This document shows positions 10,190-27,306 of a stretch of DNA of 49,584 nt, in pieces. A model generated the notes under the pieces. That model had not been told where the DNA came from and did no database searches. It saw only the letters and a program-made list of their open reading frames with translations. Every line of letters begins with the position of its first letter. Positions within the stretch are counted from its first letter, which is position 1. The position numbers and the translations under genes were made by a program. The stretch spans positions 1-49,584 of the forward strand of contig CAZYYP010000003.1 in assembly GCA_964651695.1 (NCBI GenBank), in the 5' to 3' direction. The DNA is from an uncultured Gaiellales bacterium. Its GTDB lineage: Bacteria > Actinomycetota > Thermoleophilia > Gaiellales > JALYLC01.

Positions 10190-10198
10190 GGCTCTCTC

Positions 10199-11164
10199 TC
10201 ACGCAGGCGCTGCGGCACGCGCGGCGGCCGGCACGTAGTTGACGGGCAGTCCCGCACGCGCGAGGGCGCCGTGGAGCTCGCCCGCGGCGATGTTCCGCGC
10301 CGGAATCGCGCGCGCGGCGACGAGCCGCTCGAGATCGATGCCGGTGCGCAACCCCATCGAGTCGAGCAGGAAGACGAGGTCCTCGGTGACGATGTTGCCG
10401 CTCGCCCCCGGCGCGAACGGGCAGCCACCGAGCCCGGCCAGCGAGGCGTCGAAGCTGCGCACGCCGCACTCGAGTGCCGCGACGACGTTGGCGAGGCCGA
10501 GGCCGCGCGTGTCGTGGAAGTGGGCGCCGATCGGCAGCGAGCCGACCTCGGCGGCGAGCGCCGTGAAGAGCGCGCGCACCTGCACCGGATCGGCGTACCC
10601 GACCGTGTCGGCTACGAGCAGCTCGTCCGCGCCCGCTTCGGCGAGCTGCGCCGCGTAGCGCCGCACGTCGTCGACCGCCACGCGGCCCTCGTACGAGCAG
10701 CCGAGCGCCGTCGAGATGCCGCCCTTGACGCGCGGCCTGCGCTCCGCCGGAAGCTCCGCGCAGAGAGCGACGACGCGCGCGAAGTCGGCGAGCGACTCCT
10801 CCGGCTCGCGGCGCACGTTCTGACGGCTGTGCGTGCGGCTCGCCGACATGACGAAGTCGAGCGTGTGCGCGCCGAGCGCGATGCCGCGCTCCGCGCCCTT
10901 GAGGTTCGGCACGAGCACCGTGACCGTCAGGCCTGGAAGCGCCCGCGCGGCCGCGACGACCTCGGCCGCGTCGGCGAACTGCGGCATGAGCCCAGGCGGG
11001 ACGAGCGAGGTGACCTCGATCTCGCGGACGCCCGCGGCTGCCTCGGCCCCGATCCAGGCGATCTTCTCGCCCGTCGGGACGATGCCGGTGATCAGCTGCA
11101 GGCCGTCGCGCAGGCCGACCTCGCAGACCTTGACGTCGACACCCACGATCCGCTCAGCGCCCAC
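10199..11164 (-). CDS. Hydroxymethylglutaryl-CoA lyase family (HMGL-like) acyl-CoA lyase
   Basis: VKVCEVGLRDGLQ near the N-terminus, then ADTVGYADPVQV and HFHDTRGLGLANVVAALECGVRSFDASLAGLGGCPFAPGASGNIVTEDLVFLL. Confidence 0.9.
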   Translation of the reverse strand: MGAERIVGVDVKVCEVGLRDGLQLITGIVPTGEKIAWIGAEAAAGVREIEVTSLVPPGLMPQFADAAEVVAAARALPGLTVTVLVPNLKGAERGIALGAHTLDFVMSASRTHSRQNVRREPEESLADFARVVALCAELPAERRPRVKGGISTALGCSYEGRVAVDDVRRYAAQLAEAGADELLVADTVGYADPVQVRALFTALAAEVGSLPIGAHFHDTRGLGLANVVAALECGVRSFDASLAGLGGCPFAPGASGNIVTEDLVFLLDSMGLRTGIDLERLVAARAIPARNIAAGELHGALARAGLPVNYVPAAARAAAPA

Positions 11165-11969
11165 GGAACACCGGATCGCGCTTCTCGTTGAAGGCCCGGA
11201 CGCCCTCGAGCCGGTCCTCCGTCACCACGAGCCGGTTGTAGCCCTCGAGGTCGAGCTCGTAGGCGCCGGCGAGATCGGTCTGCAGGCCGCGGTGGATCGA
11301 CTGCTTGGCAACGCGCACCGCGAGCGGGGCGTTGCGCGCGATCGCCCGCGCGGTCTCGAGCGCGTCGGCGAGGGTCTCGCCAGGCTCGCACAGCCGGTTC
11401 ACGATGCCCCATTCGCAGGCGTCCTCGGCGCTGAACGGGCGCGCCGCGAGGATGAGCTCCTTGGCCCGCCGCTCGCCCGCGGCGCGCGCGAGCGTCTGCG
11501 TGCCGCCGCCGCCGGGCATGATGCCGAGCCGCACCTCGGTGAGCGCGAGCCGCGCGCCGCGCGCGGCGTAGATGAAGTCGCACGCCAGCGCCGTCTCGAG
11601 CCCGCCGCCGAAGGCGTGACCGTTGACCGCGGCGATCACCGGAACCGGGCACTCGAGGAGCGCCAGGAACCCGCGCTCGAAGATCTCGTGCTGGGCGCGC
11701 CAGGTGGCGTCGCTCATGCCGTTGCGCTCCTTGAGATCGCCCCCGGCGCAGAACGCGCGCTCGCCGGAGCCCGTCAGGACGACGCAGCGCGCGCGCTCGG
11801 GCTCGGCGGCCAGGCGCGCCCACACGTCGAGCAGGTCGAGGCCCATCTGGGTGTTGATCGCGTTCAGGACGTCGGCGCGGTCGAGCGTGACGACGAGCAC
11901 GCCGTCGCCGGCATCGGCGACCGCGAGCGTCTCGTAGGCGAAGCCCTCGGCCGCGTCGCTAGCCGGCAA
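11154..11969 (-). CDS. Enoyl-CoA hydratase/isomerase (crotonase) family protein
   Basis: Crotonase core VLVVTLDRADVLNAINTQM...VVLTGSGERAFCAGGDLKE...AAVNGHAFGGGLETALACDF. The proposed TTG start at 11969 follows GAGG by about 6 nt and overlaps the upstream stop by 11 nt. The exact start is uncertain. Confidence 0.8.
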   Translation of the reverse strand: MPASDAAEGFAYETLAVADAGDGVLVVTLDRADVLNAINTQMGLDLLDVWARLAAEPERARCVVLTGSGERAFCAGGDLKERNGMSDATWRAQHEIFERGFLALLECPVPVIAAVNGHAFGGGLETALACDFIYAARGARLALTEVRLGIMPGGGGTQTLARAAGERRAKELILAARPFSAEDACEWGIVNRLCEPGETLADALETARAIARNAPLAVRVAKQSIHRGLQTDLAGAYELDLEGYNRLVVTEDRLEGVRAFNEKRDPVFRGR

Positions 11970-13095
11970 GGAGGGCCTCGATCGTCGTCTCGCCGAGCGC
12001 GGGCGGGGCCGTCCGCGCGAACGGTCGCTCGTCGTCGAGCGAGAGCGCCGGGCCGATGACGGGCTGAGACAGGCCGGGCAGCGAGGCGAGCAGGCCGAGG
12101 GCGCCCACCTGCTCGTGGGCGAGCAGCTGCCCCACGTCCTGCACCGGCGCGCACGGCACGCCGTCCCCGTCCAGGATGCGGCCCCACTCGCCGTTCGGCC
12201 GCGTGGCCATGACGGGCTCGATGAGCGAGTCGAGGCACGCAGCATTCGCAACACGCTCGGGGTTCGTGGCGAACCGCGCATCGGTGATCCACTCGGGGTG
12301 CTCGAGAGCCAAGCAGAAGCGGCGGTAGAGCTCGTTGTTTCCGGCCGCCACGACGATGTGGCCGTCGGCCGTCGCGTAGGCGCGGTAGGGCACGATGCCC
12401 GCCTGGCCGGTGCCCTGCTTGCCCGGCAGCGCGCCCGAGGCGAGGAACTGCAGCGCGAAGGGGCCCATCCAGGCCGCGGCCGTCTCGAGCAGCGAGACGT
12501 CGACGACGCCGCCGACGCCCGAGGACGTGCGCCGGTAGAGCGCGAGGACGATGCCGATCGCCGCCCACAGGCCGGTGCCGATGTCGACGATGGACGGGCC
12601 GACGCGCACCGGCGGCCGCCCGGGCTCCCCCGTGACGCTCATGATGCCGCCGAACGCCTGCATCAGGGGGTCGTAGCCGGGGCGCTCGGCGAGCGGCCCC
12701 TGACGCCCGAACGCGCCGATGTTGCAGTAGACGAGCGAGGGCTTCTGCGCGCAGAGCGCGGCCGCGCCGAGGCCGAGCGCGTCCACCTGCCCGGGGCGCA
12801 TGTTCTGGAGCACCACGTCGGCGCGCTCGAGGACGAGGCGCGTGAGCAGCGCGTGCTGAGCAGCGTCGCGCAGATCGCAGACGACCGACCGCTTGCCGCG
12901 GTTGAGCGCCTGGAACGTGGCCGCGGCGCCGCCGATGAACGGCGGCCCCCAGGCCCTCGCGTCGTCGCCGCCCGGCTTCTCGACCTTGACCACGAGCGCA
13001 CCCAGATCGGCGAGCAGCTGGCCCACGAAGGGCGCCGCAACGCTCTGCCCGAGCTCCACGGCGACGATGCCCGCGAGAGGCGCGCCGTCCGTCAC
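11959..13095 (-). CDS. Family III CoA-transferase (CaiB/BaiF type)
   Basis: GTG start at 13095. PLAGIVAVELGQSVAAPFVGQLLADLGALVVKVEKPGGDDAR is the typical family III N-terminus. The ORF is 378 aa. Confidence 0.9.
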   Translation of the reverse strand: MTDGAPLAGIVAVELGQSVAAPFVGQLLADLGALVVKVEKPGGDDARAWGPPFIGGAAATFQALNRGKRSVVCDLRDAAQHALLTRLVLERADVVLQNMRPGQVDALGLGAAALCAQKPSLVYCNIGAFGRQGPLAERPGYDPLMQAFGGIMSVTGEPGRPPVRVGPSIVDIGTGLWAAIGIVLALYRRTSSGVGGVVDVSLLETAAAWMGPFALQFLASGALPGKQGTGQAGIVPYRAYATADGHIVVAAGNNELYRRFCLALEHPEWITDARFATNPERVANAACLDSLIEPVMATRPNGEWGRILDGDGVPCAPVQDVGQLLAHEQVGALGLLASLPGLSQPVIGPALSLDDERPFARTAPPALGETTIEALLAG

Positions 13096-13952: not shown

Positions 13953-15494
13953 CTACGCCCGGATCAGGTCTGCGGCCTTCTCGCCGATCATGATCGTCGC
14001 GGCGTTCGTGTTGCCGCGCGTGACCGTCGGCATGACCGACGCATCCGCGACGCGCAGCCCCTCGAAGCCGTAGACGCGCAGGGCGGGATCGACGACCGAA
14101 CCGATCGCGCAGGTCGACGTCGGGTGGTAGACCGACTGGGACGCGCGGCGGACGAAGTCCATGATCGCCTCGTCCGAATCGCCGGCCGGCACGCTGAAGG
14201 GCTTGCGCATCACCTTCCGGAGCGGCGGCTGCTCGGCGACTTCCATCGCCTTGCGCATGCCCGCGAGCATGCACGCGCGGTCCTCGTCGGTCGTCAGGAA
14301 GTTGCACAGCACCGTGGGCTTGGAGTCGGCCATCGGCGTGCGCAGCATCACGCGCCCGCGGCTCGACGGCTTGATCACGACCGGGCCGAAGCAGTAGCCG
14401 TTGTCGTGCGGCGCCGTCAGCCCCTCGTCGTAGAACATCGACGCCGAGTAGTGGAACTGCATGTCGGGCGCCGCGAGATCCGGGCGCGTGCGGAAGAACG
14501 CCGCTGCCTCGGGATAGCCCGACGTCAGCGGGCCCCGGCCCTCGCTCTCGAGCAGCGCGAAGTTCTCCGGCGTGAAGATGCCGTGCATCGACTGCACGTC
14601 CGTCTCGTAGTTGAGCTGGCACATGCAGTGGTCCTGGAGGTTGCGCCCGACCGGCAGGTCCTCTCGCACCTCGATCCCGAACGGTGCGATGTCGGCCGCC
14701 GGCCCGATGCCCGAGAGCATCAGCAGCGCCGGCGACTGGTAGGCGCCGGCCGAGACGATGACCTCGCGCCCGGCGCGGATCTCCTCGGAGCCGCTGCCGC
14801 GGGCGATCTCGACACCGATCGCGCGCGTGCCCTCGAAGAGGATGCGGAGCGCCATCGCATCACAGATCACGTCGAGGTTCGGGCGCGCCGCGGCCGGGTG
14901 CAGGAACGCGGCCGCAGTCGAATGGCGCAGGCCGTTGCGCTGCGTGCTCTGGAAGCGCCCGACGCCCTCCTGCCGCGCGCCGTTGAAGTCGGGGTTGTAG
15001 TCGAGGCCGGCGAGCTCGCTCGCCTCGAGCATCGTCTCGATGAGCGGCGCCATCGAGCGGCTGTCGGACACGCTCATCGGGCCGCCCGCGCCGTGGAACG
15101 CGTCCTCGCCGCGCTCGTTGTCCTCGGAGCGCTTGAAGTACGGCAGCACCTCGTCGTAGCTCCAGCCCTCGGCCCCGCCCGCCGCCCACTCGTCGTAGTC
15201 GGCGCGGTTGCCGCGCAGGTAGATCATCGCGTTGATCGAGCCCGAACCGCCGAGCACCTTCCCGCGTGGCAGGTAGAGCCGCCGACCGCCGAGACCCGGC
15301 TCCGGCTCGCCGTACATGTCCCAGTCGACACTCGACTTCAGGAGGATCGGAAAGGCCGCCGGAATCGCGATCTCCGGGCGGCTGTCCTGGCCGCCGGCCT
15401 CGAGCAGCGCGACCTTGACGCCGGGGTCCTCGCTCAGGCGCGCGGCGAGCACGCACCCCGCAGATCCTGCACCTACGACCACGTAGTCGTACAC
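13953..15494 (-). CDS. GMC family FAD oxidoreductase (choline-dehydrogenase-like)
   Basis: MYDYVVVGAGSAGCVLAARLSEDPGVKVALLEAGG (FAD GxGxxG). C-terminal part: YHPTSTCAIG...RVADASVMPTVTRGNTNAATIMIGEKAADLI. Confidence 0.95.
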   Translation of the reverse strand: MYDYVVVGAGSAGCVLAARLSEDPGVKVALLEAGGQDSRPEIAIPAAFPILLKSSVDWDMYGEPEPGLGGRRLYLPRGKVLGGSGSINAMIYLRGNRADYDEWAAGGAEGWSYDEVLPYFKRSEDNERGEDAFHGAGGPMSVSDSRSMAPLIETMLEASELAGLDYNPDFNGARQEGVGRFQSTQRNGLRHSTAAAFLHPAAARPNLDVICDAMALRILFEGTRAIGVEIARGSGSEEIRAGREVIVSAGAYQSPALLMLSGIGPAADIAPFGIEVREDLPVGRNLQDHCMCQLNYETDVQSMHGIFTPENFALLESEGRGPLTSGYPEAAAFFRTRPDLAAPDMQFHYSASMFYDEGLTAPHDNGYCFGPVVIKPSSRGRVMLRTPMADSKPTVLCNFLTTDEDRACMLAGMRKAMEVAEQPPLRKVMRKPFSVPAGDSDEAIMDFVRRASQSVYHPTSTCAIGSVVDPALRVYGFEGLRVADASVMPTVTRGNTNAATIMIGEKAADLIRA

Positions 15495-15527
15495 CGCGCC
15501 TCCTCTTGCGTGTCAGGCCGCCTGATA

Positions 15528-16520
15528 CTACGCTCCGGCGGCGGGCGGGATCAACATTCCCCGCACGGCCGCCACGATCTCGTCCGCGCCGGGCAGATAG
15601 GCGTCCTCGAGCGGCGGGCTGAGCGGGATCGGGGCAAACGGCGCCCCGACGCGCGCGATCGGGGCGTCGAGCGAGTCGAACGCCGCGCTCCCGACCTGCG
15701 CGGCGATCTCGGCGCCGAAGCCGCCGTGCTCGACGGCCTCGTGCGCGACGACCAGCCGCCCGGTGCGGCCGACCGAATCCACGATCGCCGCGAGGTCGAG
15801 TGGGACGAGCGTGCGCGGGTCGATCACCTCGGCCTCGATGCCATCCTCGGAGGCGAGGCGATCAGCCGCCGCAACCGCCTCGTGCGCCATGCGCGAGAGC
15901 GCGACGATGGTGACGTCGTGGCCCTCGCGCAACGTGACCGCGCGCCCGATCGGCACCGGCACGACCGGCTCGGGCACCTCGCCCGTGCGGAAGTAGAGCG
16001 TCTTGTTCTCGATGAAGACGACGGGGTTGGGATCGGCGATCGCGCTCGCGAGCAGGCCCGCCGCATCGCACGGGCGGCTCGGCATCACGACCTTCAGCCC
16101 CGGCACGTGCGTCAGCCAGCTCTCGAGACTCTGCGAGTGCTGCGCACCGCCGCGGTACCCCGCGCCGCCCTGGGTGCGCAGCACCATCGGCACCGTCAGC
16201 TGCCCGCCCGACATGAAGTGCGCCTTGGCGGCGGCGTTGACGAGCTGGTCGAGCGCGAGCGTGATGAAGTCGATGAACATGATCTCGAGCACGGGACGCA
16301 TGCCCGACTGCGCGGCGCCGATCGCGACGCCGGTGATGGCCGCCTCGCTGATCGGGGTGTCGATCACCCGCTCACGGCCGAACTCCTCGGAGAGGCCCGC
16401 GGTGGCGGTGTAGGGCCCGCCCTCCGCGACGTCCTCCCCGAGCACGAAGACGCGCTCGTCCGCGCGCATCGCGGTCGCGAGCGCCGCGGTGATCGCCTTG
16501 ACGTAGGTCGTCTCAGCCAT
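15528..16520 (-). CDS. 2-oxoacid/acetoin dehydrogenase E1 component, beta subunit (second copy)
   Basis: MAETTYVKAITAALATAMRADERVFVLGEDV...VIDTPISEAAITGVAIGAA is a transketolase-like Pyr domain, followed by a C-terminal domain. The start overlaps the upstream alpha stop by 8 nt. Confidence 0.9.
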   Translation of the reverse strand: MAETTYVKAITAALATAMRADERVFVLGEDVAEGGPYTATAGLSEEFGRERVIDTPISEAAITGVAIGAAQSGMRPVLEIMFIDFITLALDQLVNAAAKAHFMSGGQLTVPMVLRTQGGAGYRGGAQHSQSLESWLTHVPGLKVVMPSRPCDAAGLLASAIADPNPVVFIENKTLYFRTGEVPEPVVPVPIGRAVTLREGHDVTIVALSRMAHEAVAAADRLASEDGIEAEVIDPRTLVPLDLAAIVDSVGRTGRLVVAHEAVEHGGFGAEIAAQVGSAAFDSLDAPIARVGAPFAPIPLSPPLEDAYLPGADEIVAAVRGMLIPPAAGA

Positions 16521-17487
16521 CGGCGTAGACCAGCTCGCCGATCAGGCCGGCCGGCGGGAACGGGCTCGCACGCGCCACGGCCTCGGCAGCCTCGAGCGCG
16601 GCGGTGGCGTCCGACTCGATCGCCGCCAGGGCGTCCGCGCCGAACCAGCCCTGCGCGATCCCGTGGCGCTGGAGCCGCCAGATCGGGTCCCTGGCGTGCC
16701 ACTCCGCGTCCGCGAGCGTCTCGCGGTACGCGCCGGGATCGCCCTCGTAGTGACCGCGCAGCCGGTGGGTCAGGCACTCGAGCAGAAACGGCCCGCCGCC
16801 GGCCCGCGCGGCGTCGAGAAAGCGCCCGAATGCGTCCCAGACCGCGGCAACGTCGCTGCCGTCCACGGTCTCGCGCTCGAGTCCGTAGGGCGCCACCACA
16901 TCGCTCACGCGCTCCACGATCGTGTGCGCCGAGCGAGGCGTGAACTCGGCGAAGCCGTTGTTCTCGCACACGAGGATCAGCGGCAGCCCCCACAGCGCCG
17001 CCAGGTTCACGGTCTCGTTGAAGTGGCCGGCCTGCACGGCGCCGTCGCCGAAGAAGACGACGGCAACCGAGTCCTCGCCCCGCAAGCGCATCGCCAGCGC
17101 GCTCCCGAGCGCGATCGGGATGGTGCCGCCCACCACGCCGGTCGCGCCGAGGAAGCCGTGCGCGGCGTCGACCAGGTGCATCGACCCGCCGAGGCCGCGG
17201 CAGAGCCCGCCGTCGCGGCCCATCAGCTCCGCGAGCACGCGCGCGAGCGGCGCGCCCTTCGCGATGGCGTGCCCGTGCGCGCGATGCCCGGAGTAGACGA
17301 CGTCGTCGGCGCGCAGTTGCGCGCACACGCCGGCCGCGACCCCTTCCCCGCCGATGCTGAGGTGGATCAGCCCGTGCACCTCGTCGGCCTGCTTGAGCCG
17401 GCCCACCCGCTCCTCGAAGAGGCGGATGCGCCACATGGTCGCGAGCAGGCGCAGCGCGTCCTCGCCGCCGAGCGGCGCAGGCGCCAC
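16513..17487 (-). CDS. 2-oxoacid/acetoin dehydrogenase E1 component, alpha subunit (second copy)
   Basis: TPP-binding motif FFGDGAVQAGHFNETVNLAALWGLPLILVCENNGF, and N-terminal MWRIRLFEERV. The GTG start at 17487 directly abuts the upstream beta stop at 17488-17490. Confidence 0.85.
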   Translation of the reverse strand: MAPAPLGGEDALRLLATMWRIRLFEERVGRLKQADEVHGLIHLSIGGEGVAAGVCAQLRADDVVYSGHRAHGHAIAKGAPLARVLAELMGRDGGLCRGLGGSMHLVDAAHGFLGATGVVGGTIPIALGSALAMRLRGEDSVAVVFFGDGAVQAGHFNETVNLAALWGLPLILVCENNGFAEFTPRSAHTIVERVSDVVAPYGLERETVDGSDVAAVWDAFGRFLDAARAGGGPFLLECLTHRLRGHYEGDPGAYRETLADAEWHARDPIWRLQRHGIAQGWFGADALAAIESDATAALEAAEAVARASPFPPAGLIGELVYADG

Positions 17488-18468
17488 CTAGGAGCTCACG
17501 AGTGCCGTTCCGAGCACCCGGTGGACCGCCGCGACGACCTTCTCCTCGCTGGGCATCACGAATGCCTCGAGGGGCTGGCTGTAGGGGACGGTCGCGTCCA
17601 GCGCGGTGACCATGACGATCGGCGCCTTGAGCGACGAGAAGCCGTGTTCGGCGACTTCGGCCGCGATCACGCCGGCCGCGGACGCATGGCGCGTGGCCTG
17701 GTCGACGAGCACGAGGTGACCGGTCTTCTCGACCGACTCCAGGATCGTCTTGGTGTCGAGCGGCGCGAGCGTGCGCGGGTCGATCACCTCGGCCTGGATG
17801 CCGTCGGAGGCGAGTTGCCCGGCCGCGGCGAGCGCGCGGTCGACGCACCAGCCCGTGGCGACGATGGTCACGTCCCCGCCCGTGCGCCGGATCGCGGCCT
17901 GGCCGAACGGCACGAGGTACTCGCCGTCCGGCACCTCGCCGTGCTCGAGCGTGAGCAGGTAGTTGTGCAGGTAGACGACGGGGTTGTCGTCCCGGATCGC
18001 CGTCGCCATCAGGCCCTTGGCGTCGGCTGCCGTCGACGGCACGACGACCTTGAGGCCCGGGACGCCCATGAAGAGCGCGCTGATCGTGCCCGTGTGCTGA
18101 CCCGCCCAGCCGGCCGTGAAGCCGTAGCCGGCCTTGAGCACGATCGGGACCTTGACCTGGCCGCCGCTCATCGCGCGGAAGCGCGGGGCCTCGTTGAGTA
18201 CCTGATCCATGGCGACGAGCATGAACTCGGCCATGTAGAGCTCGACGACGGGCCGGAAGCCCGAGAGCGCGGCGCCGATCGCGATGCCGATCTCGGCGGT
18301 CTCGGAGATCGGCGTGACGCGCACGCGATCCCTGCCGAAGGCGTCGACGAACGGCTCGTTCTCCGTCGTGGCCATGTTCTGGCCGAAGTAGAGGACGCTC
18401 TCGTCGCGCTCCATCTCGAGGTGGATCGCCTCGCCGATCGCGGCGATGTACGGCAGTTCATGTGCCAT
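17488..18468 (-). CDS. 2-oxoacid/acetoin dehydrogenase E1 component, beta subunit (first copy)
   Basis: MAHELPYIAAIGEAIHLEMERDESVLYFGQNM...RVTPISETAEIGIAIGAALSG, over 326 aa. The architecture matches an E1 beta / transketolase C-terminal domain. Confidence 0.9.
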   Translation of the reverse strand: MAHELPYIAAIGEAIHLEMERDESVLYFGQNMATTENEPFVDAFGRDRVRVTPISETAEIGIAIGAALSGFRPVVELYMAEFMLVAMDQVLNEAPRFRAMSGGQVKVPIVLKAGYGFTAGWAGQHTGTISALFMGVPGLKVVVPSTAADAKGLMATAIRDDNPVVYLHNYLLTLEHGEVPDGEYLVPFGQAAIRRTGGDVTIVATGWCVDRALAAAGQLASDGIQAEVIDPRTLAPLDTKTILESVEKTGHLVLVDQATRHASAAGVIAAEVAEHGFSSLKAPIVMVTALDATVPYSQPLEAFVMPSEEKVVAAVHRVLGTALVSS

Positions 18469-18477
18469 GAATCGCTC

Positions 18478-19518
18478 CTAGGCCTCGGTGTAGGCGAGCG
18501 CTTCGCTCGTCTCGGGGAAGGGGCTCTCGAGTCCGAACGTGACAGCCGCCTGCATCTCGTCGCGCACCGTCGCCGCCATCGCGTCGGCCTGCTCGGCCGT
18601 GAGCGTCCCGTCGGCGACGAGCCGCCCGCGGAACGCCGGCAGCGGGTCGCCTCGCTTGGCCGCCTCGTACTCCTCGGGCGCGCCGAACTTCTCGATCGCC
18701 TCGTGCTCGGGGAAGTGGAGCGGAACGCCGGGCGGGGCGATGATGTTGCCGTGCGCCGAGAGGCGGTACATCTGCGACTCCACGAGCGTCGGTCCGTCGC
18801 CCGCGCGCGCACGCGCGACGGCGGCCCCGACCGTCTCGTAGACGGCCACCGGATCGCGGCCGTCGATCGTCACGCCGGGCATGCTGTAGGCCTTCGCCTT
18901 GACCGAGAGATCCTCGCCGTTGGCGCGGTTCGCGTCCTCCTGGTCGGAGCGCGTGTGGACGTTGTAGCCGTTGTTCTCCATCACGAAGACGATCGGCAGC
19001 TTCCACAGCGAGGCGATGTTGAGCGTCTCGGCGAACGCGCCCTGCTTCGAGGCGCCGTCGCCGAAGAAGCAGAGCACGACCTGCCCCTGCTTGCGGATCT
19101 GCGCGGCCCAGGCGGCGCCGGCGGCATGCGGGATGCCCGCCGCGACGATCCCGGAGGTGCCGAGGAAGCCGTTGGAGACGTCGGTCAGGTGCATCGAGCC
19201 GCCGATGCCCTTGCAGAGCCCGTCCCTGCGGCCGTAGATCTCGGCCATCATCGCCTTCGGATCCGTGCCGCGCGCGATGGGATAGCCGTGGCAGCGGTAG
19301 GTGGTGAGGAACTGGTCGTCGGGGCCGAGCGTCGCGATCGACCCGACGATCGAGGCCTCGGCGCCGTCGGCGAGGTGCGTGTGCCCGCGGATCACGCCCG
19401 GATGCTCGAGGAACGTGCGCTTGACGCGCTCCTCGAACTCGCGGATCCGCAGCATCTGCTCGTAGATCCAGACCAGCCGGTCGCGGTCGAGCGCGGGGAC
19501 CCCCTGCAGCGTGCTCAC
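18478..19518 (-). CDS. 2-oxoacid/acetoin dehydrogenase E1 component, alpha subunit (first copy)
   Basis: GTG at 19518 overlaps the upstream stop as GTGA and is in frame with ORF 18478..20472. N-terminus VSTLQGVPALDRDRLVWIYEQMLRIREFEERV. TPP motif FFGDGASKQGAFAETLNIASLWKLPIVFVMENNGY. Confidence 0.9.
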   Translation of the reverse strand: MSTLQGVPALDRDRLVWIYEQMLRIREFEERVKRTFLEHPGVIRGHTHLADGAEASIVGSIATLGPDDQFLTTYRCHGYPIARGTDPKAMMAEIYGRRDGLCKGIGGSMHLTDVSNGFLGTSGIVAAGIPHAAGAAWAAQIRKQGQVVLCFFGDGASKQGAFAETLNIASLWKLPIVFVMENNGYNVHTRSDQEDANRANGEDLSVKAKAYSMPGVTIDGRDPVAVYETVGAAVARARAGDGPTLVESQMYRLSAHGNIIAPPGVPLHFPEHEAIEKFGAPEEYEAAKRGDPLPAFRGRLVADGTLTAEQADAMAATVRDEMQAAVTFGLESPFPETSEALAYTEA

Positions 19519-20396
19519 GTGGAGCTCCTCTCCTTCGCGAATTGGGCGGCGGTCGTCTCGTAGGCGCGCCGGAAGATGACCCCCAGCGGCTGGTTGCGCA
19601 GCTCCTCGGACAGCACCTCGACGCCCCACGGGCCGTCGTAGCCGCACTCCCGGCAGACCTCGATGTAGGAGCGGAGGTCGAACTCGCCCTCGCCGGGCAG
19701 GCGACGATGGTTGACGGTCTCGTCGACGAGGTCGTCCATGTCCTCGCGCCGGCCGTCGCTCAGCTCGACCCAGGACAGGTACTCGGACGGGATCCGCCGC
19801 AGCTCGCCCGGCGCGATCCCGAGCTTGCTCATGTGCCACGTGTCGATCGCGATGCCGCCATTCGCAGCGCCCGCCCCCGCGACGACGGCCAGGGCGGAGT
19901 CGACGCTCCGCACGTTCACGTCGAACGGCATGAACTCGTAGACGATCTTCGCGTCGGTGCGCTCGGCGGCCTCGGCGCAGAGCTCGCCGAAGCGCTCGGC
20001 GAGCCGCGGGATCCCGCACGGCGTCCCCGGGATGTTGCCGATCTTGATGTGGTGGGCGCCGAGCGCCCCCGCGGCTGCGAGCAGCAGCTCGCGGGTCGCA
20101 TCGGACGCAGCTCGGCGTTCGTCGCCCGGGTCGAGGAACCAGTCCATGAGGAACTCGAGCTCCAGGTGCTGCAGCCCGTTGTCGTCGAAGACCTTCTTCA
20201 TCTCCGCGAGGCTGCGCGTCTCGAGCACGTGCTGGAGGTCGGCGTGCCAGATCCCGATGCCGCTGAACCCGACCTCCCGCGCCTGCGCACAGCGATCGGC
20301 CCAGTCGAACAGGCTCCACTCGCGCCCGACGTGCACCTCGACCGGACCGGAGACCGTCCAGTAGAGGGCGACGAGCTCTGCGTCCGGCGCGCTCAC
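19515..20396 (-). CDS. Xylose-isomerase-like TIM-barrel protein (sugar phosphate isomerase/epimerase/dehydratase family)
   Basis: GTG at 20396 overlaps the LigM-like stop as GTGA and is in frame with ORF 19515..21122. Family pattern seen: ...HIKIGNIPG..., DTWHM, RRLPGEGEFDLRSYIEVCRECGYDGPWGVEVLSEE. Confidence 0.8.
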   Translation of the reverse strand: MSAPDAELVALYWTVSGPVEVHVGREWSLFDWADRCAQAREVGFSGIGIWHADLQHVLETRSLAEMKKVFDDNGLQHLELEFLMDWFLDPGDERRAASDATRELLLAAAGALGAHHIKIGNIPGTPCGIPRLAERFGELCAEAAERTDAKIVYEFMPFDVNVRSVDSALAVVAGAGAANGGIAIDTWHMSKLGIAPGELRRIPSEYLSWVELSDGRREDMDDLVDETVNHRRLPGEGEFDLRSYIEVCRECGYDGPWGVEVLSEELRNQPLGVIFRRAYETTAAQFAKERSST

Positions 20397-21760
20397 TTGG
20401 GGCGGTACGAGGCGCGGACGACCTCGGCGTACGGGACGGGCGAGACGGTGGCCCGGATCTCCGTCTGCACATGGCGCTCGACGACGGGCTTGGCCGAGCC
20501 GCCGCCCTCCTCGCCCCAGACGAGCACGACCTCGGTGCCCGGCTCGCTCTGCGCGACGTCGACGACGGCGAGCGAGAGCATCGAGCTCTCGTTGGAGCTG
20601 TAGCCGGAGAACGTCGAGACGCCCACCATCTCGCCGTCCTTCATGATCCTGTCGTTGGGCCAGGTGGAGTAGTTGGAGAGGGGGAGGTCGATGTACTTGG
20701 CCCTGTCGCCCTTGTGGAACATCGTCTCCATCGCGCGCGCGACGTCCTCGCCGTGCCACGCGAGCGTGACCTTCTTGCGCGGCGGAGCGGCGGCCATCCG
20801 CTCGAGCGCGGCGCGGCCGATGAACTCGTGGTCGAACTTGACGAAGCCGCCGTAGCCGAGGTCGTACGGCGTCAGGTAGTAGTCGGAGATGTCGTCCGAG
20901 TAGTAGCTGCCGCCGAGCGAGCCCGTGCCCTCGTACCCGTCGGCGGGCAGCCAGCTGCGGTAGGCCTTCATGTCGTCGCCCGTGAAGATCGCCGGCAGCG
21001 GGCACGGGATCCAGCCCGACTCCAGCGTGTTCGTGGCGTAGACGCGCGAGCCCACCTGCCGGAGCCCGAACTCCGCGCCTGCGGCCACGATCGCGGCCTT
21101 GACCTCGGCGCCCTCGTCCCACGGGCCGAACAGCTCGAGGCCCGGAACGCCCGACATGCCGTGATGGAGGGCGCGCACGGCGTGGCCGGCGATCGTGATC
21201 TCGCCCATGTTGAAGAACTTGATCTCGGGCAGAGGGCCGCCGTTGGCCTTCTCCAGCACCTCGAGCGCGGTCGGGCCTTGCACCTGGTAGCGGTAGATCC
21301 TGCGATTGCCCTTGTTGACGGCCGCGCGCTCGTCGCGCTCGCAGGTCGCGTCGTAGTCGCCCGTCTCGCAGTGGTACTGCACCCAGTTGTGCGCCGAGGG
21401 CCGCCCGACGAGGCTGAGCAGGTTCTCGTCGAGGTAGAAGAGGATCGCGTCGCCGATCACGTAGCCGTCGTAGTTGGTCGCGACGAATTGCTTGGCCTTG
21501 TCGACGGCGAAGTTCTCGAAGCTGTTGACGCCGAGGTCGGACAGCAGCCGGATCGCATCCGGGCCATGGATGTACAGATCGGTCATATGGTACGACTGAT
21601 CGAAGAGGCAGCTCGTCGCGCGCCAGGCGTGCTGCTCGTCGCGCCAGTTCGTGAACTCGCTCGCATACCCCGGATAGACGTATGGGCCGATCTGCGAGTT
21701 GCGCGCGAGGTCGACGGGACTCCGGGTCACCAGCACGTCTTCCAGGCTTCGCGAACTCAT
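20393..21760 (-). CDS. ligM: Tetrahydrofolate-dependent aromatic O-demethylase, LigM-like (GcvT/aminomethyltransferase family)
   Basis: From ATG 21760: MSSRSLEDVLVTRSPVDLARNSQIGPYVYPGYASEFTNWRDEQHAWR...LFDQSYHMTDLYIHGPDAIRLLSD...KFFNM...LHHGMSGVPGLELFGPW...NTLESGWIPCPLPAIFTGDDMKAYRSWLPA...GYGGFVKFDHEFIGRAALE...KKVTLAW...VSPVPY. As I remember it, this tracks Sphingobium SYK-6 LigM block by block. The alternative ATG at 21772 sits flush against its SD. Confidence 0.8.
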   Translation of the reverse strand: MSSRSLEDVLVTRSPVDLARNSQIGPYVYPGYASEFTNWRDEQHAWRATSCLFDQSYHMTDLYIHGPDAIRLLSDLGVNSFENFAVDKAKQFVATNYDGYVIGDAILFYLDENLLSLVGRPSAHNWVQYHCETGDYDATCERDERAAVNKGNRRIYRYQVQGPTALEVLEKANGGPLPEIKFFNMGEITIAGHAVRALHHGMSGVPGLELFGPWDEGAEVKAAIVAAGAEFGLRQVGSRVYATNTLESGWIPCPLPAIFTGDDMKAYRSWLPADGYEGTGSLGGSYYSDDISDYYLTPYDLGYGGFVKFDHEFIGRAALERMAAAPPRKKVTLAWHGEDVARAMETMFHKGDRAKYIDLPLSNYSTWPNDRIMKDGEMVGVSTFSGYSSNESSMLSLAVVDVAQSEPGTEVVLVWGEEGGGSAKPVVERHVQTEIRATVSPVPYAEVVRASYRPK

Positions 21761-21936
21761 GGCTGCGTGCATCTCCTCATCGAGAATCGCCGGGGTGTGG
21801 CGAGCTGGCCGGCCCGGTGCGAGGGCCTGCATGCGCCTGCCGTCGTCGGGCGGCGCCGCTCCGGACTCTCTCAGGGCATTGCCCGTTTGTCAAGACACCG
21901 TTCCGACAACTGGAACAGGGAGTAGGATAGGCCTCG

Positions 21937-23925
21937 ATGTCGACCGCCACCAGCAACGGCGACGGCTCCGCGGCCCTCTGGACGCCGCCGCAGGATGTCC
22001 GCGAGACGACGGAGATCGGCCGCTACGTGACCTGGCTCGAGAGCGAGCGAGGACTGGCGTTCGCGTCCTACGAGGAGCTGCAGCGCTGGTCCGTCGACGA
22101 CCTGCCCGGGTTCTGGTCGTCGATCTGGGACTTCTTCGAGGTCAGGTCGCACGCGCCCTACAGCGAGGTCCTGGCCTCGGACGCGATGCCCGGCGCCCAG
22201 TGGTTTCCCGGCGCACGGCTCAACTTCGCCGAGCACCTCGTCGGCCGGGACGAGGACGTGGACACGGTCGCGATCCTCTCCTACTCCCAGACGCGCGCGC
22301 CGCAGCAGCTCACGTTCGGCGAGTTGCGCGAGCAGGTGGCGCGCGCTCGCGCGGGTCTCGAGCGCCTCGGCGTGCAGCCGGGAGACCGGGTCGTCGCCTA
22401 CCTCCCGAACATCCCGGAGACGCTGATCGCGTTCGCCGCGACCGCGAGCCTCGGCGCGATCTGGGCGAGTTGCGCCCCGGAGCTCGGCGCCCGCAGCGTG
22501 ATCGACCGGCTCGCGCAGCTCGACCCGGCGGTGCTGCTGACCGTCGACGGCTACGGCTTCCGCGACCGCTCGATCGACCGCAGCGAGGAGGTCGCGACGA
22601 TCCGCGCGGCGCTGCCCAGCCTGCGCCACGTCGTCCACGTGCCCTACGGCGGTCGTGAGCTGCCGGACACCGTCGCCTGGGACGAGCTGCTGGCCGAGCC
22701 CGCCCCGCTCGCGTTCCTGCCGGTCGCGTTCGACCACCCGCTCTCGGTGCTGTTCTCGTCCGGGACGACGGGCATCCCCAAGGCGATCGTCCACGGGCAC
22801 GGCGGCATCCTCCTGGAGTACCTCAAGGCGCACGCGCTGAGCTGGGACCTCAAGCCGGGCGGCCGCCTGCTGTGGTTCTCGACGACCTCGTGGATGATGT
22901 GGAACGCGCTCATCTCCGCGCTGCTCATGCGCTCCTCGATCGTCATGCTCGACGGCGACCCCGCGTGGCCGGATCTCGGCTGGCAGTGGCGGCTCGCCGA
23001 GCAGACGCGCCCGACCTTCATGGGCGTCAGCCCGGCCTTCCTGATGGCCTGCCGCAAAGCCGGTCTGCAGCCGGGCCGGGAGTACGACCTCAGCTCGATC
23101 CGCGTCTTCGGCACGGCCGGATCTCCGCTCCCGGCCGAGGGGTACCGCTATGTCTACGACCAACTCGGTCCCGCCGTCCTGCTGATCAACGGCAGCGGCG
23201 GCACGGACGTCTGCAGCGGCATCGTGGGCGGCTCGGCGCTGATCCCGGTCTACGAGGGCGAGATCTCCGGCCGTCTGCTCGGCGTCGCCACCGAGGCCTT
23301 CGACCCGCGCGGAGAGCCACTCGTCGGCGAGCTCGGCGAGCTCGTGATCACGCGTCCGATGCCGTCGATGCCGATCGGTCTCTGGGGCGACGAGGACGGC
23401 TCGCGCTACCACGCCTCGTACTTCGGCATGTACCCCGGGGTCTGGCGGCAGGGCGACTGGATCGCATTCTCGGAGCGCGGCAGCTGCGTCGTCACCGGCC
23501 GCTCCGACGCGACGCTCAACCGCGGCGGCGTCCGCCTCGGCACGGGTGAGTTCTACAGCGTCGTCGAGGAGCTGCCCGAGGTCACCGACAGCCTCGTCGT
23601 GCACCTCGAGGACGCCGAGGGCGGCGCGGGCGAGCTCCTGCTCTTCATCGTGCTCGCCGACCGCGCCGAGCTGGACGAGGACCTGCGCCGGCGCATCGCC
23701 GTGAGCCTGCGCTCGCAGCTCTCCCCGCGCCACGTGCCCGACAGGATCCACGCCGTGCACGCGATTCCGCGCACGCTCACGGGCAAGAAGCTCGAGACGC
23801 CCGTCAAGCGCATCCTCTGCGGCGCCCGGGTGGAGACCGTTGCGAGCAGGGACGCGCTGCTCGACCCCACGGCGCTCGATGCGTTCGCCGTGCTCGCCAC
23901 CCCGCCGAAGGACACCCGTGCCTGA
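21937..23925 (+). CDS. Acetoacetyl-CoA synthetase-like acyl-CoA ligase (ANL superfamily)
   Basis: 662 aa. The N-terminus LWTPPQDVRETTEIGRYVTWLESERGLAFASYEELQRWSVDDLPGFWSSIWDFFEV is typical of acetoacetate-CoA ligases. AMP-binding core FSSGTTGIPKAIVHGHGG. Confidence 0.85.
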   Translation: MSTATSNGDGSAALWTPPQDVRETTEIGRYVTWLESERGLAFASYEELQRWSVDDLPGFWSSIWDFFEVRSHAPYSEVLASDAMPGAQWFPGARLNFAEHLVGRDEDVDTVAILSYSQTRAPQQLTFGELREQVARARAGLERLGVQPGDRVVAYLPNIPETLIAFAATASLGAIWASCAPELGARSVIDRLAQLDPAVLLTVDGYGFRDRSIDRSEEVATIRAALPSLRHVVHVPYGGRELPDTVAWDELLAEPAPLAFLPVAFDHPLSVLFSSGTTGIPKAIVHGHGGILLEYLKAHALSWDLKPGGRLLWFSTTSWMMWNALISALLMRSSIVMLDGDPAWPDLGWQWRLAEQTRPTFMGVSPAFLMACRKAGLQPGREYDLSSIRVFGTAGSPLPAEGYRYVYDQLGPAVLLINGSGGTDVCSGIVGGSALIPVYEGEISGRLLGVATEAFDPRGEPLVGELGELVITRPMPSMPIGLWGDEDGSRYHASYFGMYPGVWRQGDWIAFSERGSCVVTGRSDATLNRGGVRLGTGEFYSVVEELPEVTDSLVVHLEDAEGGAGELLLFIVLADRAELDEDLRRRIAVSLRSQLSPRHVPDRIHAVHAIPRTLTGKKLETPVKRILCGARVETVASRDALLDPTALDAFAVLATPPKDTRA

Positions 23926-24820
23926 GATCGAGCGACTCGCGCTCGCGGACGCCGTCGCGATCGACTTCCACACGCACGTCGAGATGTCGCAGGCGGGCGG
24001 CGACTCGCTCCCCGACGAGCTGCGCGAGGCCGCCGTGCGCCACTTCCGCGGCGAATCGGCGCGCCCGACGGCCGAGGAGCTCGCGACGTACTACCGCGAG
24101 CGCCGCATGATGGCCGTGATCTTCACGGTCGACTCCGAGTCCTTCACGGGCCAGGAGCGCGTGCCGAACGAAGAGATCGCCGAGGTCGCGCGGGCCAACT
24201 CCGACGTCCTCATCCCGTTCGCGAGCATCGACCCGCACAAGGGCAAGCGCGGCGTCGACGAGGCGCGCCGGCTGATCGCCGAGCACGGCGTGCGCGGCTT
24301 CAAGTTCCACCCCAACGTCCAGGGCTTCTTCCCGAACGACCGCATGGCCTACCCGCTCTACGAGGCGATCGAGGAGGCGGGCCTGCCGGCGCTCTTCCAC
24401 ACCGGGCAGTCAGGCGTCGGCACGGGCCTCCCGGGCGGCGGCGGCATCCGGCTCAAGTACTCGAACCCGATCCACGTGGACGACGTCGCGGTCGACTTCC
24501 CGCGCCTCAAGATCGTGCTCGCCCACCCGTCGTTCCCGTGGCAGGACGAGGCGATCGCCGTGGCCGTGCACAAGCCGCAGGTCTACATCGACCTCTCCGG
24601 CTGGTCGCCGAAGTACTTCCCGCCGCAACTCGTCCACCACGCCAACACGCTGCTGCGCGACCGCGTGCTGTTCGGCACCGACTACCCGTTCATCACCCCC
24701 GATCGCTGGCTCGCGGACTTCGCCAAGCTCGAGATCAAGCCGGAGGTGCGTCCACTGATCCTGAAGCAGAACGCGATGCGCCTGCTCGGGCTGGAACTAC
24801 CGGAGGGTCCGCATGCCTGA
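23918..24820 (+). CDS. Amidohydrolase-2 family metal-dependent hydrolase/decarboxylase (LigI/LigW/ACMSD-type fold)
   Basis: GTG at 23918 is in frame with ORF 23840..24820 and overlaps the ligase stop by 8 nt (GTGCCTGA). Motifs AIDFHTHVE, FKFHPNVQGF, ALFHTGQ, KIVLAHPSFPW, LFGTDYPF. Confidence 0.85.
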   Translation: MPEIERLALADAVAIDFHTHVEMSQAGGDSLPDELREAAVRHFRGESARPTAEELATYYRERRMMAVIFTVDSESFTGQERVPNEEIAEVARANSDVLIPFASIDPHKGKRGVDEARRLIAEHGVRGFKFHPNVQGFFPNDRMAYPLYEAIEEAGLPALFHTGQSGVGTGLPGGGGIRLKYSNPIHVDDVAVDFPRLKIVLAHPSFPWQDEAIAVAVHKPQVYIDLSGWSPKYFPPQLVHHANTLLRDRVLFGTDYPFITPDRWLADFAKLEIKPEVRPLILKQNAMRLLGLELPEGPHA

Positions 24821-26686: not shown

Positions 26687-27306
26687 CAGTCGCCTTCGAC
26701 GAGCGCCCGGAGCCCCTGCAGGTCATAGGAGAGCTCCCCCGCCGCATACCGCACGCGCATCGCCCGCTCGCGCTCCTCGCGCTCGAGCGCGAGCGGCCGC
26801 ACCTCGTTCATCCGCTCGGCCGGGAGCGCCAGCGCGCCGTCGCAGTCCATCACGACGAGGTCGCCCGGGCGGATGGCGGCACCGCCGATCGCGACCGGGA
26901 CGTCGAGTTGCCCCACCCCGCCCTTGGTCGCGCCCGAGGCGCGCACCCAGCGCGCCCAGATCGGCAGGCCGATGGAGACGAGCTCGTCGAGGTCGCGGAC
27001 GGCGCCGTCGACGAGCATCCCCGCGGCGCCCTGCTCCCGGGCCTGCGTGGCGAGCAGCTCGCCGATGAACGCGATCGGCGCGGGCTCGGCCGAGGTGAGC
27101 ACGAGGATGTCGCCCGGCTGCGCGTGGGCGATGACGGCGTGCACCATCGTGTTGTCGCCGGGCGTGCAGACGGCGATGCGCGCGGGGCCGGCGACGCGCG
27201 ATCCGGGGACGACCTGGGTCAGCGGGAGGTCGACGACACCGGTGCGGCCCGCGGCCTCGTGCACGGTCGAGACACCGAGCCTGGCGAAGACGGCGTAGTC
27301 GGTCAC
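26686..27306 (-). CDS. RraA-fold class II aldolase, 4-carboxy-4-hydroxy-2-oxoadipate / HMG aldolase type (LigK/GalC-like)
   Basis: GTG at 27306 overlaps the upstream stop as GTGA and is in frame with ORF 26686..27480. Sequence VTDYAVFARLGVSTVHEAAGRTGVVDL...CTPGDNTMVHAVIAHAQPGDILVL...GELLATQAREQGAAGMLVDGAVRD...PIWARWVRASGATKGG. Confidence 0.8.
   Translation of the reverse strand: MTDYAVFARLGVSTVHEAAGRTGVVDLPLTQVVPGSRVAGPARIAVCTPGDNTMVHAVIAHAQPGDILVLTSAEPAPIAFIGELLATQAREQGAAGMLVDGAVRDLDELVSIGLPIWARWVRASGATKGGVGQLDVPVAIGGAAIRPGDLVVMDCDGALALPAERMNEVRPLALEREERERAMRVRYAAGELSYDLQGLRALVEGD

Follow-up and report, generated by a model that had tools for sequence, protein, structure and literature searches.

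Tandem E1 alpha/beta pairs tied to a TIM-barrel enzyme beside a LigM-type O-demethylase in uncultured Thermoleophilia: a candidate module for aryl side-chain cleavage

The seven-gene block at positions 13953–21760 of the DNA analyzed here (the window, an entire contig of 49,584 bp from the soil metagenome-assembled genome of an uncultured, Gaiellales-like member of Thermoleophilia) comprises three modules: a LigM-type O-demethylase, a xylose-isomerase-like TIM-barrel protein (TIM protein) with two E1 alpha/beta pairs (the TIM/E1 module), and a GMC alcohol oxidoreductase. Known superfamilies account for every protein; the TIM/E1 module is new as an E1 system in that it lacks an E2, has a TIM partner, forms a distinct clade, and is distributed over two phyla. 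We favor, with a probability of roughly 40%, the reading that this module performs thiamine diphosphate (ThDP)-dependent cleavage of an aryl α-ketol or diketone side chain and thereby feeds LigM; the substrate is what we infer here. The block lies in a ca. 36-kb aromatic-catabolism island.

The window has a GC content of ca. 0.72, and gene calling by third-position GC gave a clean gene map. The block consists of seven consecutive minus-strand open reading frames, each with a third-position GC of 0.94–0.96. An earlier analysis of the bare sequence (the original prediction) had described seven coupled genes; the reading frames and the junctions it gave were found where it had placed them, and Pfam and NCBIfam profile matches bore out its family calls for all seven. 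In the order of transcription, the features are as follows.

21761–21936: divergent intergenic region of 176 bp between the LigM gene and the operon of an acetoacetate-CoA-ligase-family (AACS-type) enzyme, presumed promoter site
20393–21760, minus strand: predicted LigM/DesA-family tetrahydrofolate-dependent aryl O-demethylase, 455 aa (Pfam GCV_T, 1.2e-39; NCBIfam LigM)
19515–20396, minus strand: xylose-isomerase-like TIM-barrel protein, 293 aa, invariant core (AP_endonuc_2, PF01261, 1.1e-24, 87.9 bits)
18478–19518, minus strand: E1 alpha subunit 1 (E1a1), 346 aa, divergent clade, invariant core (E1_dh, 3.4e-66)
17488–18468, minus strand: E1 beta subunit 1 (E1b1), 326 aa, invariant core (Transket_pyr and Transketolase_C)
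16513–17487, minus strand: E1 alpha subunit 2 (E1a2), 324 aa, more canonical, Thermoleophilia-specific (E1_dh, 8.2e-63)
15528–16520, minus strand: E1 beta subunit 2 (E1b2), 330 aa (Transket_pyr and Transketolase_C; PRK09212, 360.7 bits)
13953–15494, minus strand: GMC flavoprotein oxidoreductase, 513 aa, movable accessory (GMC_oxred_N, PF00732, 2.4e-55; GMC_oxred_C, PF05199, 6.6e-32)

The LigM gene starts with ATG at 21760, and GAGGAG is found 12 nt upstream. As read from the sequence, the LigM and TIM genes overlap by 4 nt (GTGA, 20393–20396), as do the TIM and E1a1 genes (GTGA, 19515–19518). A 9-nt gap with GGAG separates E1a1 from E1b1, E1b1 abuts E1a2 (TAG-GTG at 17488/17487), E1a2 and E1b2 overlap by 8 nt (16513–16520), and a 33-nt gap with AGAGGAGG precedes the GMC gene. 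A pattern scan detected no promoter-like or terminator-like site within the block, and searches for elements that might subdivide or regulate it gave no promoter, terminator, inverted repeat, Rfam family, or tRNA. Therefore, on the basis of the coupled junctions and the lack of such internal sites, the block is predicted to be a single transcription unit. In 21761–21936, neither a consensus sigma-70 site (pattern scan) nor an inverted repeat (repeat search) was found. Since 4-nt gene overlaps are ordinary in operons of high-GC actinobacteria, the gene content, not the coupling, is the unusual feature of the block. The recurrence of these tight junctions among related genomes shows that the adjacency is not due to chance.

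Textbooks present thiamine enzymes of the E1 family as components of large E1–E2–E3 complexes. The best profile and PDB matches of the E1 subunits in the block were the alpha and beta subunits of pyruvate dehydrogenase (PDH) E1. E1a1 and E1a2 scored 294.4 and 290.9 bits, respectively, on the PDH E1alpha model TIGR03182, both below its cut-off of 393.85; on PRK09212 (cut-off 321), E1b1 scored 302.5 bits and E1b2 360.7 bits, so that E1b2 was the only subunit to pass a curated cut-off. The two alphas are 42% identical to each other and the two betas 46%. The ThDP motif GDG..NN was intact in 79/79 E1a1 and 54/54 E1a2 orthologues, and the beta-subunit motif with the cofactor-activating Glu in 125/125 sequences. 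In E1a1, the loop that follows YRLSAH contains insertions specific to its clade; in our own reading, this loop would be the counterpart of the active-site (phosphorylation) loop of human E1alpha. Against a library of 1.84 billion representative proteins, E1a1 formed a sharply delimited clade with a steep drop beyond its own cluster. Both pairs, which appear catalytically intact by motif, lack a local E2 and are obligatorily tied to the TIM-barrel enzyme.

Apparent sister clusters of E1a1 at 60–67% identity in the representative library were rejected, as they are frameshifted long-read copies of the same locus. Frequent frameshifts in long-read contigs of metagenome-assembled genomes (MAGs) split or fuse genes in L086, L087, L088, and many MFD-labelled loci; a 528-aa TIM–E1alpha 'fusion' is one example. 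Such artefacts create spurious 60–67% clusters in protein libraries, and any apparent sister clade should be verified in the DNA itself.

A scan with one genome per species gave 452 relatives of E1a1, and the best 80 were analyzed. All of these are MAGs labelled Gaiellales, Solirubrobacterales, or Thermoleophilia, in which E1a1 is 75–96% identical. Gene presence was counted in the 63 related loci of at least 20 kb, a gene being scored when it lay within 10 kb. TIM was present in 60/63 loci, E1a2 and E1b2 in 58/63 each, the AACS-type ligase in 52/63, LigM in 46/63, and the GMC, PIG-L, and RraA genes in 45/63 each. TIM was directly followed by E1a1 in 64 loci (median spacing −4 nt), E1b1 by E1a2 in 56 (2 nt), and E1a2 by E1b2 in 51 (−8 nt). 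LigM stood directly upstream of TIM in 35 loci (median 4 nt) and elsewhere at the end of a ring-cleavage operon or on the opposite strand; GMC was downstream of E1b2 in 22 loci and often divergent from TIM in Solirubrobacterales. The invariant core is TIM, E1a1, and E1b1, usually followed by E1a2 and E1b2, and the seven-gene block is one arrangement of movable modules round this core. The original prediction had treated the seven genes as a unit and called for comparative genomics of the block. The genes form one operon here and the core is conserved among aromatic-catabolism neighbors, but the whole set is variable, with LigM and GMC mobile across related genomes.

This mobility bears on the possibility that the modules share a promoter but act on different substrates as parts of a general aromatic regulon. 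Relative to the core, LigM and GMC vary in position and orientation, and in a quarter of the loci they are not found within 10 kb; the operon with GntR and CoA-transferase genes downstream of the block in the window was beside it in 0/63 loci. On the other hand, LigM and TIM are translationally coupled in 35 loci, and LigM, GMC, the AACS-type ligase, and the ring-cleavage genes recur within 10 kb in 37–52/63 loci (58–83%) across two orders. We regard unrelated modules as distinctly unlikely.

Other conserved neighbors in the related loci were an IclR regulator, Zn-dependent alcohol dehydrogenases, an aldehyde dehydrogenase, an MTHFR-like protein, and Liv-type ABC transporters. To these is added a ThDP enzyme that resembles benzoylformate decarboxylase (460 bits, cut-off 493). 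Several Solirubrobacterales loci have TIM and the two E1 pairs with only a regulator and an ABC transporter, which suggests action on an imported compound. In Solirubrobacterales, the E1 genes are also followed on the same strand by genes for DUF1932, DUF6282, PIG-L, RraA, and catechol 2,3-dioxygenase (C23O) proteins. Directly upstream of TIM/E1 in L067, L069, L072, L076, L078, and L086 (554–6684), we observed genes for a split phosphoenolpyruvate-synthase-like dikinase, a carboxyltransferase, a biotin carboxyl carrier protein, and a HAD phosphatase; biotin carboxylase likewise accompanies the carrier protein in several Solirubrobacterales loci and L086. The composition of this set is as in the acetovanillone/4-hydroxyacetophenone carboxylation systems (AcvABCDEF/Hpe). 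A secreted GH3 beta-glucosidase gene lies between the set and the TIM/E1 genes in four of those loci.

The only true near outgroup of E1a1 was found in Acidobacteriota (56–58% identical). The acidobacterial operon encodes, in this order, a DUF5938 protein, an acyl-CoA ligase, a lipoyl protein, E1alpha, E1beta, TIM, DUF6282, PIG-L, and RraA-like proteins; Amidohydro_2, thiolase, and further CoA ligase genes are nearby. Its E1alpha is 58% identical to E1a1 and 34% to E1a2, and its E1beta is 68% identical to E1b1 and 42% to E1b2. Identities to the other window proteins are 49% (TIM), 59% (DUF5938), 50% (DUF6282), 50% (PIG-L), and 39% (RraA), and all of these families also flank or form the block in the window. 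The carrier is free-standing (82–95 aa, motif ELETEK) and encoded directly upstream of E1alpha (L089, 9736–9987; L090, 1–288; L091, 8309–8557); no E2 catalytic domain was found in the acidobacterial E1 operons. From these likenesses, the predicted cross-phylum unit is E1alpha/beta, TIM, DUF5938, DUF6282, a GalB-type hydratase, and an RraA-type aldolase, and E1a2/E1b2 would be an addition of Thermoleophilia.

More distant relatives differ in context. In a tblastn search of 72,556 plasmids with TIM and E1a1, we found no orthologue, only ca. 40%-identical matches in other contexts. TIM homologues of ca. 40% identity on Rhizobium leguminosarum pRLN2 (L081, 6206–17217) and a Rhodococcus opacus plasmid (L082, 9989–19716) lie next to genes for a hydroxyquinol-type intradiol dioxygenase, a maleylacetate reductase, several short-chain dehydrogenases/reductases, and a sugar ABC transporter. 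This content suggests an undescribed route that aromatizes a cyclitol-like compound to hydroxyquinol. On a Halobaculum lipolyticum plasmid (L085, 5376–10098), a 411-aa TIM homologue (41% identical) is divergent from genes for E1alpha, E1beta, a lipoyl protein, and an E2 that consists of a short catalytic domain, in a glycosyltransferase and nucleotidyl-sugar cluster. Judged by these homologies, Halobaculum is a third lineage that pairs the TIM subfamily with E1, in a looser association. A Sphingobium plasmid (L083) carries E1alpha, E1beta, and lipoyl protein genes next to a pyrroloquinoline quinone dehydrogenase gene. It seems that E1 systems having a carrier but lacking an E2 core are an architecture that recurs and is so far undescribed.

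We searched for E2 and E3 by tblastn with Escherichia coli AceF and Lpd (E ≤ 1e-3); neither the window nor the 80 loci, which total 1.55 Mb, gave a homologue. Neither did queries with the Halobaculum E2 and lipoyl, Sphingobium lipoyl, and acidobacterial lipoyl proteins (E ≤ 1e-2) detect any homologue there. Matches in an E2/E3 motif scan were rejected as out-of-frame chance matches. The original prediction had singled out E2/E3 genes beside the block, completing an ordinary complex, as a finding that would speak against it; none was present in the window or within ±10 kb in the 80 genomes. These negatives cover the window and the loci only, and E2/E3 may be encoded elsewhere in the genome.

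The four subunits might be ordinary 2-oxoacid or acetoin dehydrogenase E1s that borrow a remote E2/E3 and act on aryl-glyoxylates, arylpyruvates, pyruvate, or acetoin, their clustering with aromatic genes being incidental or merely supportive. Both alphas score best on PDH E1alpha models, E1b2 passes the PRK09212 cut-off, databases label the relatives as pyruvate or acetoin dehydrogenase, the acidobacterial sister clade has a lipoyl carrier, and the window ends with the contig, leaving the remaining genome out of view. However, the 80 genomes have no E2, E3, or lipoyl gene within ±10 kb of the block, E1a1, E1a2, and E1b1 fall under the curated cut-offs, and E1a1 belongs to a sharply delimited clade with a remodelled active-site loop. 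Moreover, the coupling with TIM is obligatory in two phyla, while canonical complexes have no such partner. We consider ordinary E1s unlikely.

The TIM protein is probably a metal-dependent ketol isomerase, epimerase, or dehydratase. Its AlphaFold2 model (pLDDT 77, pTM 0.80) gave Lmo2234 (2g0w, TM 0.80) as the best Foldseek match, with QuiC1 (5hmq) and IolI (1i60) also among the neighbors at TM ca. 0.75–0.80; these fold neighbors include inosose isomerase, the dehydroshikimate-dehydratase domain of QuiC1, and ketose 3-epimerases. Deprotonation beside the carbonyl of a hydroxyketone is common to all of those enzymes. The protein reached 51.3 bits on the QuiC model (cut-off 1200) and 23.4 bits on Hyi (cut-off 353), and so belongs to neither subfamily; it matched no IolE model in a profile search. 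Among the matches of a search with the TIM protein, the relatives were all 79–100% identical.

The first gene of the block is predicted to encode a genuine LigM/DesA-family aryl O-demethylase. Its product scored 599.6 bits on the NCBIfam LigM equivalog NF047885 (cut-off 580) and 689.3 bits on the DesA (syringate) equivalog NF047633, short of the cut-off of 800. It aligned end to end with the LigM structure of Sphingobium sp. SYK-6 (5TL4; 513 bits, residues 5–452), and Y29, Y31, H60, Q93, R122, E215, and Y247 of SYK-6 LigM are all identical in it. We take these seven to be the substrate and catalytic residues of LigM, with R122 presumably binding the carboxylate. The retained Arg argues for an aromatic acid as the substrate of the homologue.

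LigM-type methyl transfer to tetrahydrofolate requires an aryl methyl ether with a phenolate leaving group. This established mechanism weighs on the second of two routes offered by the original prediction, the catabolism of an O-methylated cyclitol. In that route, GMC would form an inosose, TIM would act as an IolE-like dehydratase, and E1 would replace IolD in opening a cyclic 1,2-diketone; LigM would remove the methyl group, possibly after aromatization. The resemblance of the TIM fold to IolI and dehydroshikimate dehydratase is in its favor, as are the ca. 40%-identical TIM homologues on the Rhizobium and Rhodococcus plasmids, whose clusters resemble cyclitol-to-hydroxyquinol routes. Nevertheless, direct demethylation of a cyclitol by LigM is rejected on account of the aryl-ether requirement, and the homologue keeps the residues for an aromatic acid. 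Neither the conserved neighbors nor the island, as annotated with Pfam/NCBIfam, included an iol family (IolG, IolE, IolD, or IolB/IolC) or a sugar or inositol transporter; the transporters are Liv-type, and the regulators are of the IclR, GntR, and MarR families. The context of the block is aromatic compounds, particularly aryl ketones, and nothing points to inositols. The cyclitol route is thus disfavored, and we consider it highly improbable.

The GMC protein scored below the cut-offs of the models for the choline dehydrogenase BetA (TIGR01810, 460.6 bits against 732.1; PRK02106, 530.3 against 605). Its nearest solved structures were 9lq0 (361 bits), the chloramphenicol-inactivating oxidoreductase 8b7s (353 bits), and the alcohol oxidase 8rpg. 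We take the 8b7s enzyme to oxidize the side-chain alcohol of chloramphenicol, an aryl-propanediol.

In the favored reading of side-chain cleavage, the cell would take up lignin-type aryl-C2/C3 compounds with an oxygenated side chain (arylglycerol, hydroxypropiovanillone, or Hibbert-ketone types), and the GMC enzyme would oxidize the side-chain alcohol. The TIM enzyme, by metal-stabilized enediolate chemistry, would isomerize, epimerize, or dehydrate the α-hydroxyketone into a form acceptable to E1. The E1 heterotetramers with ThDP would then break the C–C bond next to the carbonyl with no dedicated E2/E3, yielding a vanillin- or vanillate-type product and a C2 fragment, much as acetoin dehydrogenase E1 acts on acetoin or diacetyl. 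LigM would demethylate the aromatic acid to protocatechuate or gallate, which could enter the neighboring pcaHG pathway or an extradiol/GalB-type pathway. The two E1 pairs may each serve one stereoisomer or substrate class, which would suit racemic lignin-derived ketols.

The E1 of acetoin dehydrogenase uses diketones or methylacetoin as acyl-anion donors and converts benzaldehyde to phenylacetylcarbinol (PMC12247030); since the latter reaction is the reverse of the proposed cleavage, it provides a precedent. The enzyme that cleaves ketols derived from G-diketone to vanillin and a C2 unit has been reported as unknown (PMC8612281, 2021). Side-chain cleavage with demethylation was the first route of the original prediction; it fits the aromatic context and the LigM residues best, and the route itself is one that we infer.

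Several observations weigh against this reading. LigM is not within 10 kb in 17/63 loci and GMC not in 18/63, and none of LigM, GMC, and a ring-cleaving dioxygenase was found within 10 kb of the acidobacterial E1 operons. The strongest cross-phylum partners of the core are the GalB-type hydratase, the RraA-type aldolase, DUF6282, and DUF5938, not LigM and GMC. The acidobacterial lipoyl carrier points to oxidative (dehydrogenase-type) chemistry and not to a simple lyase, and a shared E2/E3 encoded elsewhere in the genome is possible. The AACS-type ligase, present in 52/63 loci, is not required by the scheme unless aroylacetates serve as substrates too.

Given those cross-phylum partners of the core, a role downstream of ring cleavage is a serious rival. 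The relevant genes flank the block in the window.

21937–23925, plus strand: AACS-type enzyme, 662 aa (PRK03584, 866.5 bits, cut-off 639; TIGR01217, 751 bits, cut-off 520.9)
23879–24820, plus strand: Amidohydro_2 protein, 313 aa (Pfam, 4.4e-55)
24813–25925, plus strand: saccharopine-dehydrogenase-like NADP-binding protein with a DUF5938 domain, 370 aa (Pfam DUF5938, 6.2e-74)
25943–26686, minus strand: DUF1932 protein, 247 aa (Pfam DUF1932; the orthologue in L088 also NAD_binding_2)
26686–27306, minus strand: RraA-like class II aldolase/oxaloacetate decarboxylase, 206 aa (RraA-like, 9.1e-35)
27303–28016, minus strand: PIG-L-fold hydratase, homologue of the 4-oxalomesaconate hydratase GalB, 237 aa (PDB 5CGZ)
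28009–28908, minus strand: DUF6282 protein, 299 aa (Pfam, 1.3e-59)
28886–29869, minus strand: type I extradiol (catechol 2,3-dioxygenase-type) ring-cleavage dioxygenase, 327 aa (TIGR03211, 311 bits, cut-off 320)

The minus-strand operon at 25943–31790 (DUF1932, RraA, PIG-L, DUF6282, C23O, and a second GMC enzyme, GMC2) looks, by its predicted families, like a non-canonical protocatechuate/gallate-type extradiol pathway, its proteins taking the places in which one would look for LigAB, LigC, LigI, LigJ, and LigK. The PIG-L protein matched GalB (5CGZ) with 209.4 bits (E 4.6e-61) over residues 3–234 of 237. The RraA-like protein scored 176.9 bits on the LigK/GalC aldolase model PRK09262 (cut-off 179) and 166.7 bits on TIGR02798 (cut-off 304.5), and the dioxygenase matched 9wgj (407 bits) and 3lm4 of RHA1 (273 bits). 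The DUF1932 protein, which in Solirubrobacterales follows E1b2 on the same strand, is probably a beta-hydroxyacid-dehydrogenase-type enzyme and a candidate semialdehyde dehydrogenase for the ring-fission product. The DUF6282 protein had no sequence relative in PDB. Within the operon, GMC2 has a 160-aa upstream partner that matches no family.

The TIM and E1 proteins could act after extradiol cleavage of the protocatechuate-4,5 or gallate type on an aliphatic α-hydroxy-oxo acid or 2-oxoacid, for example an acyloin or diketo acid that the RraA-type aldolase would set free from a catechol with a hydroxyalkyl or acyl side chain. In the manner of Hyi and OtnI, TIM would turn this into a ketol or 2-oxo form on which E1 can act, and a CoA ligase and thiolase would finish the fragments. 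In Acidobacteriota, a single operon combines E1, TIM, DUF6282, PIG-L, and RraA-like genes, the products being 39–68% identical to the window proteins; in Solirubrobacterales, the same-strand run from the E1 genes to C23O described above agrees with this, as do the full-length GalB homologue in the window and the conserved acetoacetate-CoA-ligase-family enzyme nearby. However, neither a ThDP enzyme nor a TIM barrel is needed in the lower pathways known for gallate and protocatechuate-4,5 cleavage, several loci with TIM, two E1 pairs, a transporter, and a regulator have no hydratase or aldolase within 10 kb, and the acidobacterial loci have no ring-cleaving dioxygenase within the same distance. 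We consider this role possible but improbable, although it is the main rival to side-chain cleavage.

A variant of side-chain cleavage gives the DUF5938 protein a part: together with TIM and E1, it may be the missing route for Hibbert-type aryl-C3 ketones, which we consider rather doubtful. DUF5938 would reduce an aryl 1,2-diketone, TIM would interconvert or epimerize the two α-ketols, and the E1s would break the Cα–Cβ (acyloin) bond to give vanillin or syringaldehyde and an activated C2 unit. The two E1 pairs of Thermoleophilia would be stereo-complementary, and Acidobacteriota would use one pair with a lipoyl carrier.

As for the remaining genes, the AACS-type enzyme is a candidate ligase for 3-oxoacids such as aroylacetates. 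VceA of SYK-6 was rejected as its counterpart, since VceA is an acetyl-CoA-dependent converting enzyme. The Amidohydro_2 protein has the uncharacterized BB4693 as its only relative in PDB and is 32% identical to its acidobacterial neighbor; from its called start, the gene shares 47 nt with the end of the AACS-type ligase gene (23879–23925), and the true start may be further downstream. A beta-ketoadipate branch on the plus strand (33211–39297) consists of pcaH, pcaG, pcaD-like, pcaC-like, thiolase (pcaF), pobA-like, and pcaB-like genes, preceded by a MarR gene. This complete branch and the extradiol operon place both intradiol and extradiol routes in one island. The minus-strand operon at 3598–13095 encodes a family III CoA-transferase, an enoyl-CoA hydratase, an HMG-CoA-lyase-like protein, an acyl-CoA dehydrogenase, an alpha/beta-hydrolase, an aldehyde dehydrogenase, an Fe-dependent alcohol dehydrogenase, and an MmgE/PrpD protein, and its predicted content resembles an itaconate/citramalate-type route; in none of the 63 long related loci did it adjoin the E1 block. 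Two tandem crcB (fluoride channel) genes lie at 40556–41292; no fluoride riboswitch or other Rfam family reached the gathering threshold anywhere in the window.

Our literature searches turned up no account of LigM combined with E1 modules, of a module of E1 and TIM, or of DUF5938 or DUF6282, and no characterized member of DUF5938, DUF6282, or DUF1932. The statement of the original prediction that no known pathway combines such an O-demethylase with E1 modules agrees with this, as no comparable system was found in the literature. A distinct E1 clade fixed to a TIM partner thus occurs in many uncultured Thermoleophilia, with a lipoyl-carrier variant in Acidobacteriota, and both groups rank among the dominant bacteria of soil, while little is known of the carbon sources they use. 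If side-chain cleavage is correct, the module would supply a missing enzyme for lignin valorization and a clue to the diet of these soil lineages. If the Hibbert-ketone route is correct, the E1 family would gain its first ThDP enzyme devoted to cleaving lignin side chains, and this enzyme would occur widely in two soil phyla that are among the most abundant and the least cultured. If instead the module acts on ring-fission products, it would define a new branch of extradiol lower pathways with DUF5938, DUF6282, and DUF1932.

Compared with known systems, the LigM homologue is like LigM/DesA of SYK-6 in its full-length homology, its key residues, and its passing of the LigM cut-off. It scores higher on the DesA model yet stays under the cut-off of that model, so that the substrate preference is ambiguous. 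Unlike the SYK-6 proteins, it is an actinobacterial sequence, and no metF/ligH-type folate gene is present in the window, although an MTHFR-like gene was found in nine related loci. In the pathway of gallate/protocatechuate 4,5-cleavage, the ring is cleaved by LigAB/GalA-type enzymes, whereas the window has a type I extradiol enzyme and, in place of LigC and LigI, DUF1932 and DUF6282 proteins. A GalB homologue and an RraA-like aldolase adjoin the block, and this ring-fission set co-occurs with E1 and TIM, neither of which belongs to the known pathway.

The steps of IolE and IolD share a logic with the module, in that a xylose-isomerase-like TIM barrel makes a 1,2-dicarbonyl or ketol and a ThDP enzyme cleaves it. 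However, IolD belongs to the acetolactate-synthase-type ThDP family and the enzymes of the window to the E1 family, and the window has no other iol genes. E1-type alpha/beta ThDP enzymes are known to act without E2 in sugar branching (PMC12247030). Like these E2-independent alphaKADH2 carboligases of branched-sugar biosynthesis, the window enzymes are alpha/beta E1s without an E2 core in their locus; the carboligases are biosynthetic and use pyruvate as the donor, whereas the block lies among catabolic aromatic genes. A biosynthetic (branched-sugar-type) role was rejected because every neighbor is catabolic. With acetoin dehydrogenase E1 (AcoA/AcoB, acetoin:2,6-dichlorophenolindophenol oxidoreductase) and heterotetrameric PDH E1, the window E1s share their domains and ThDP motifs. 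In contrast to those systems, their locus has no acoC/acoL-type E2/E3 genes, three of the four subunits score under curated cut-offs, E1a1 has insertions in the active-site loop, and the obligatory TIM-barrel partner and the two divergent tandem pairs are features of the window.

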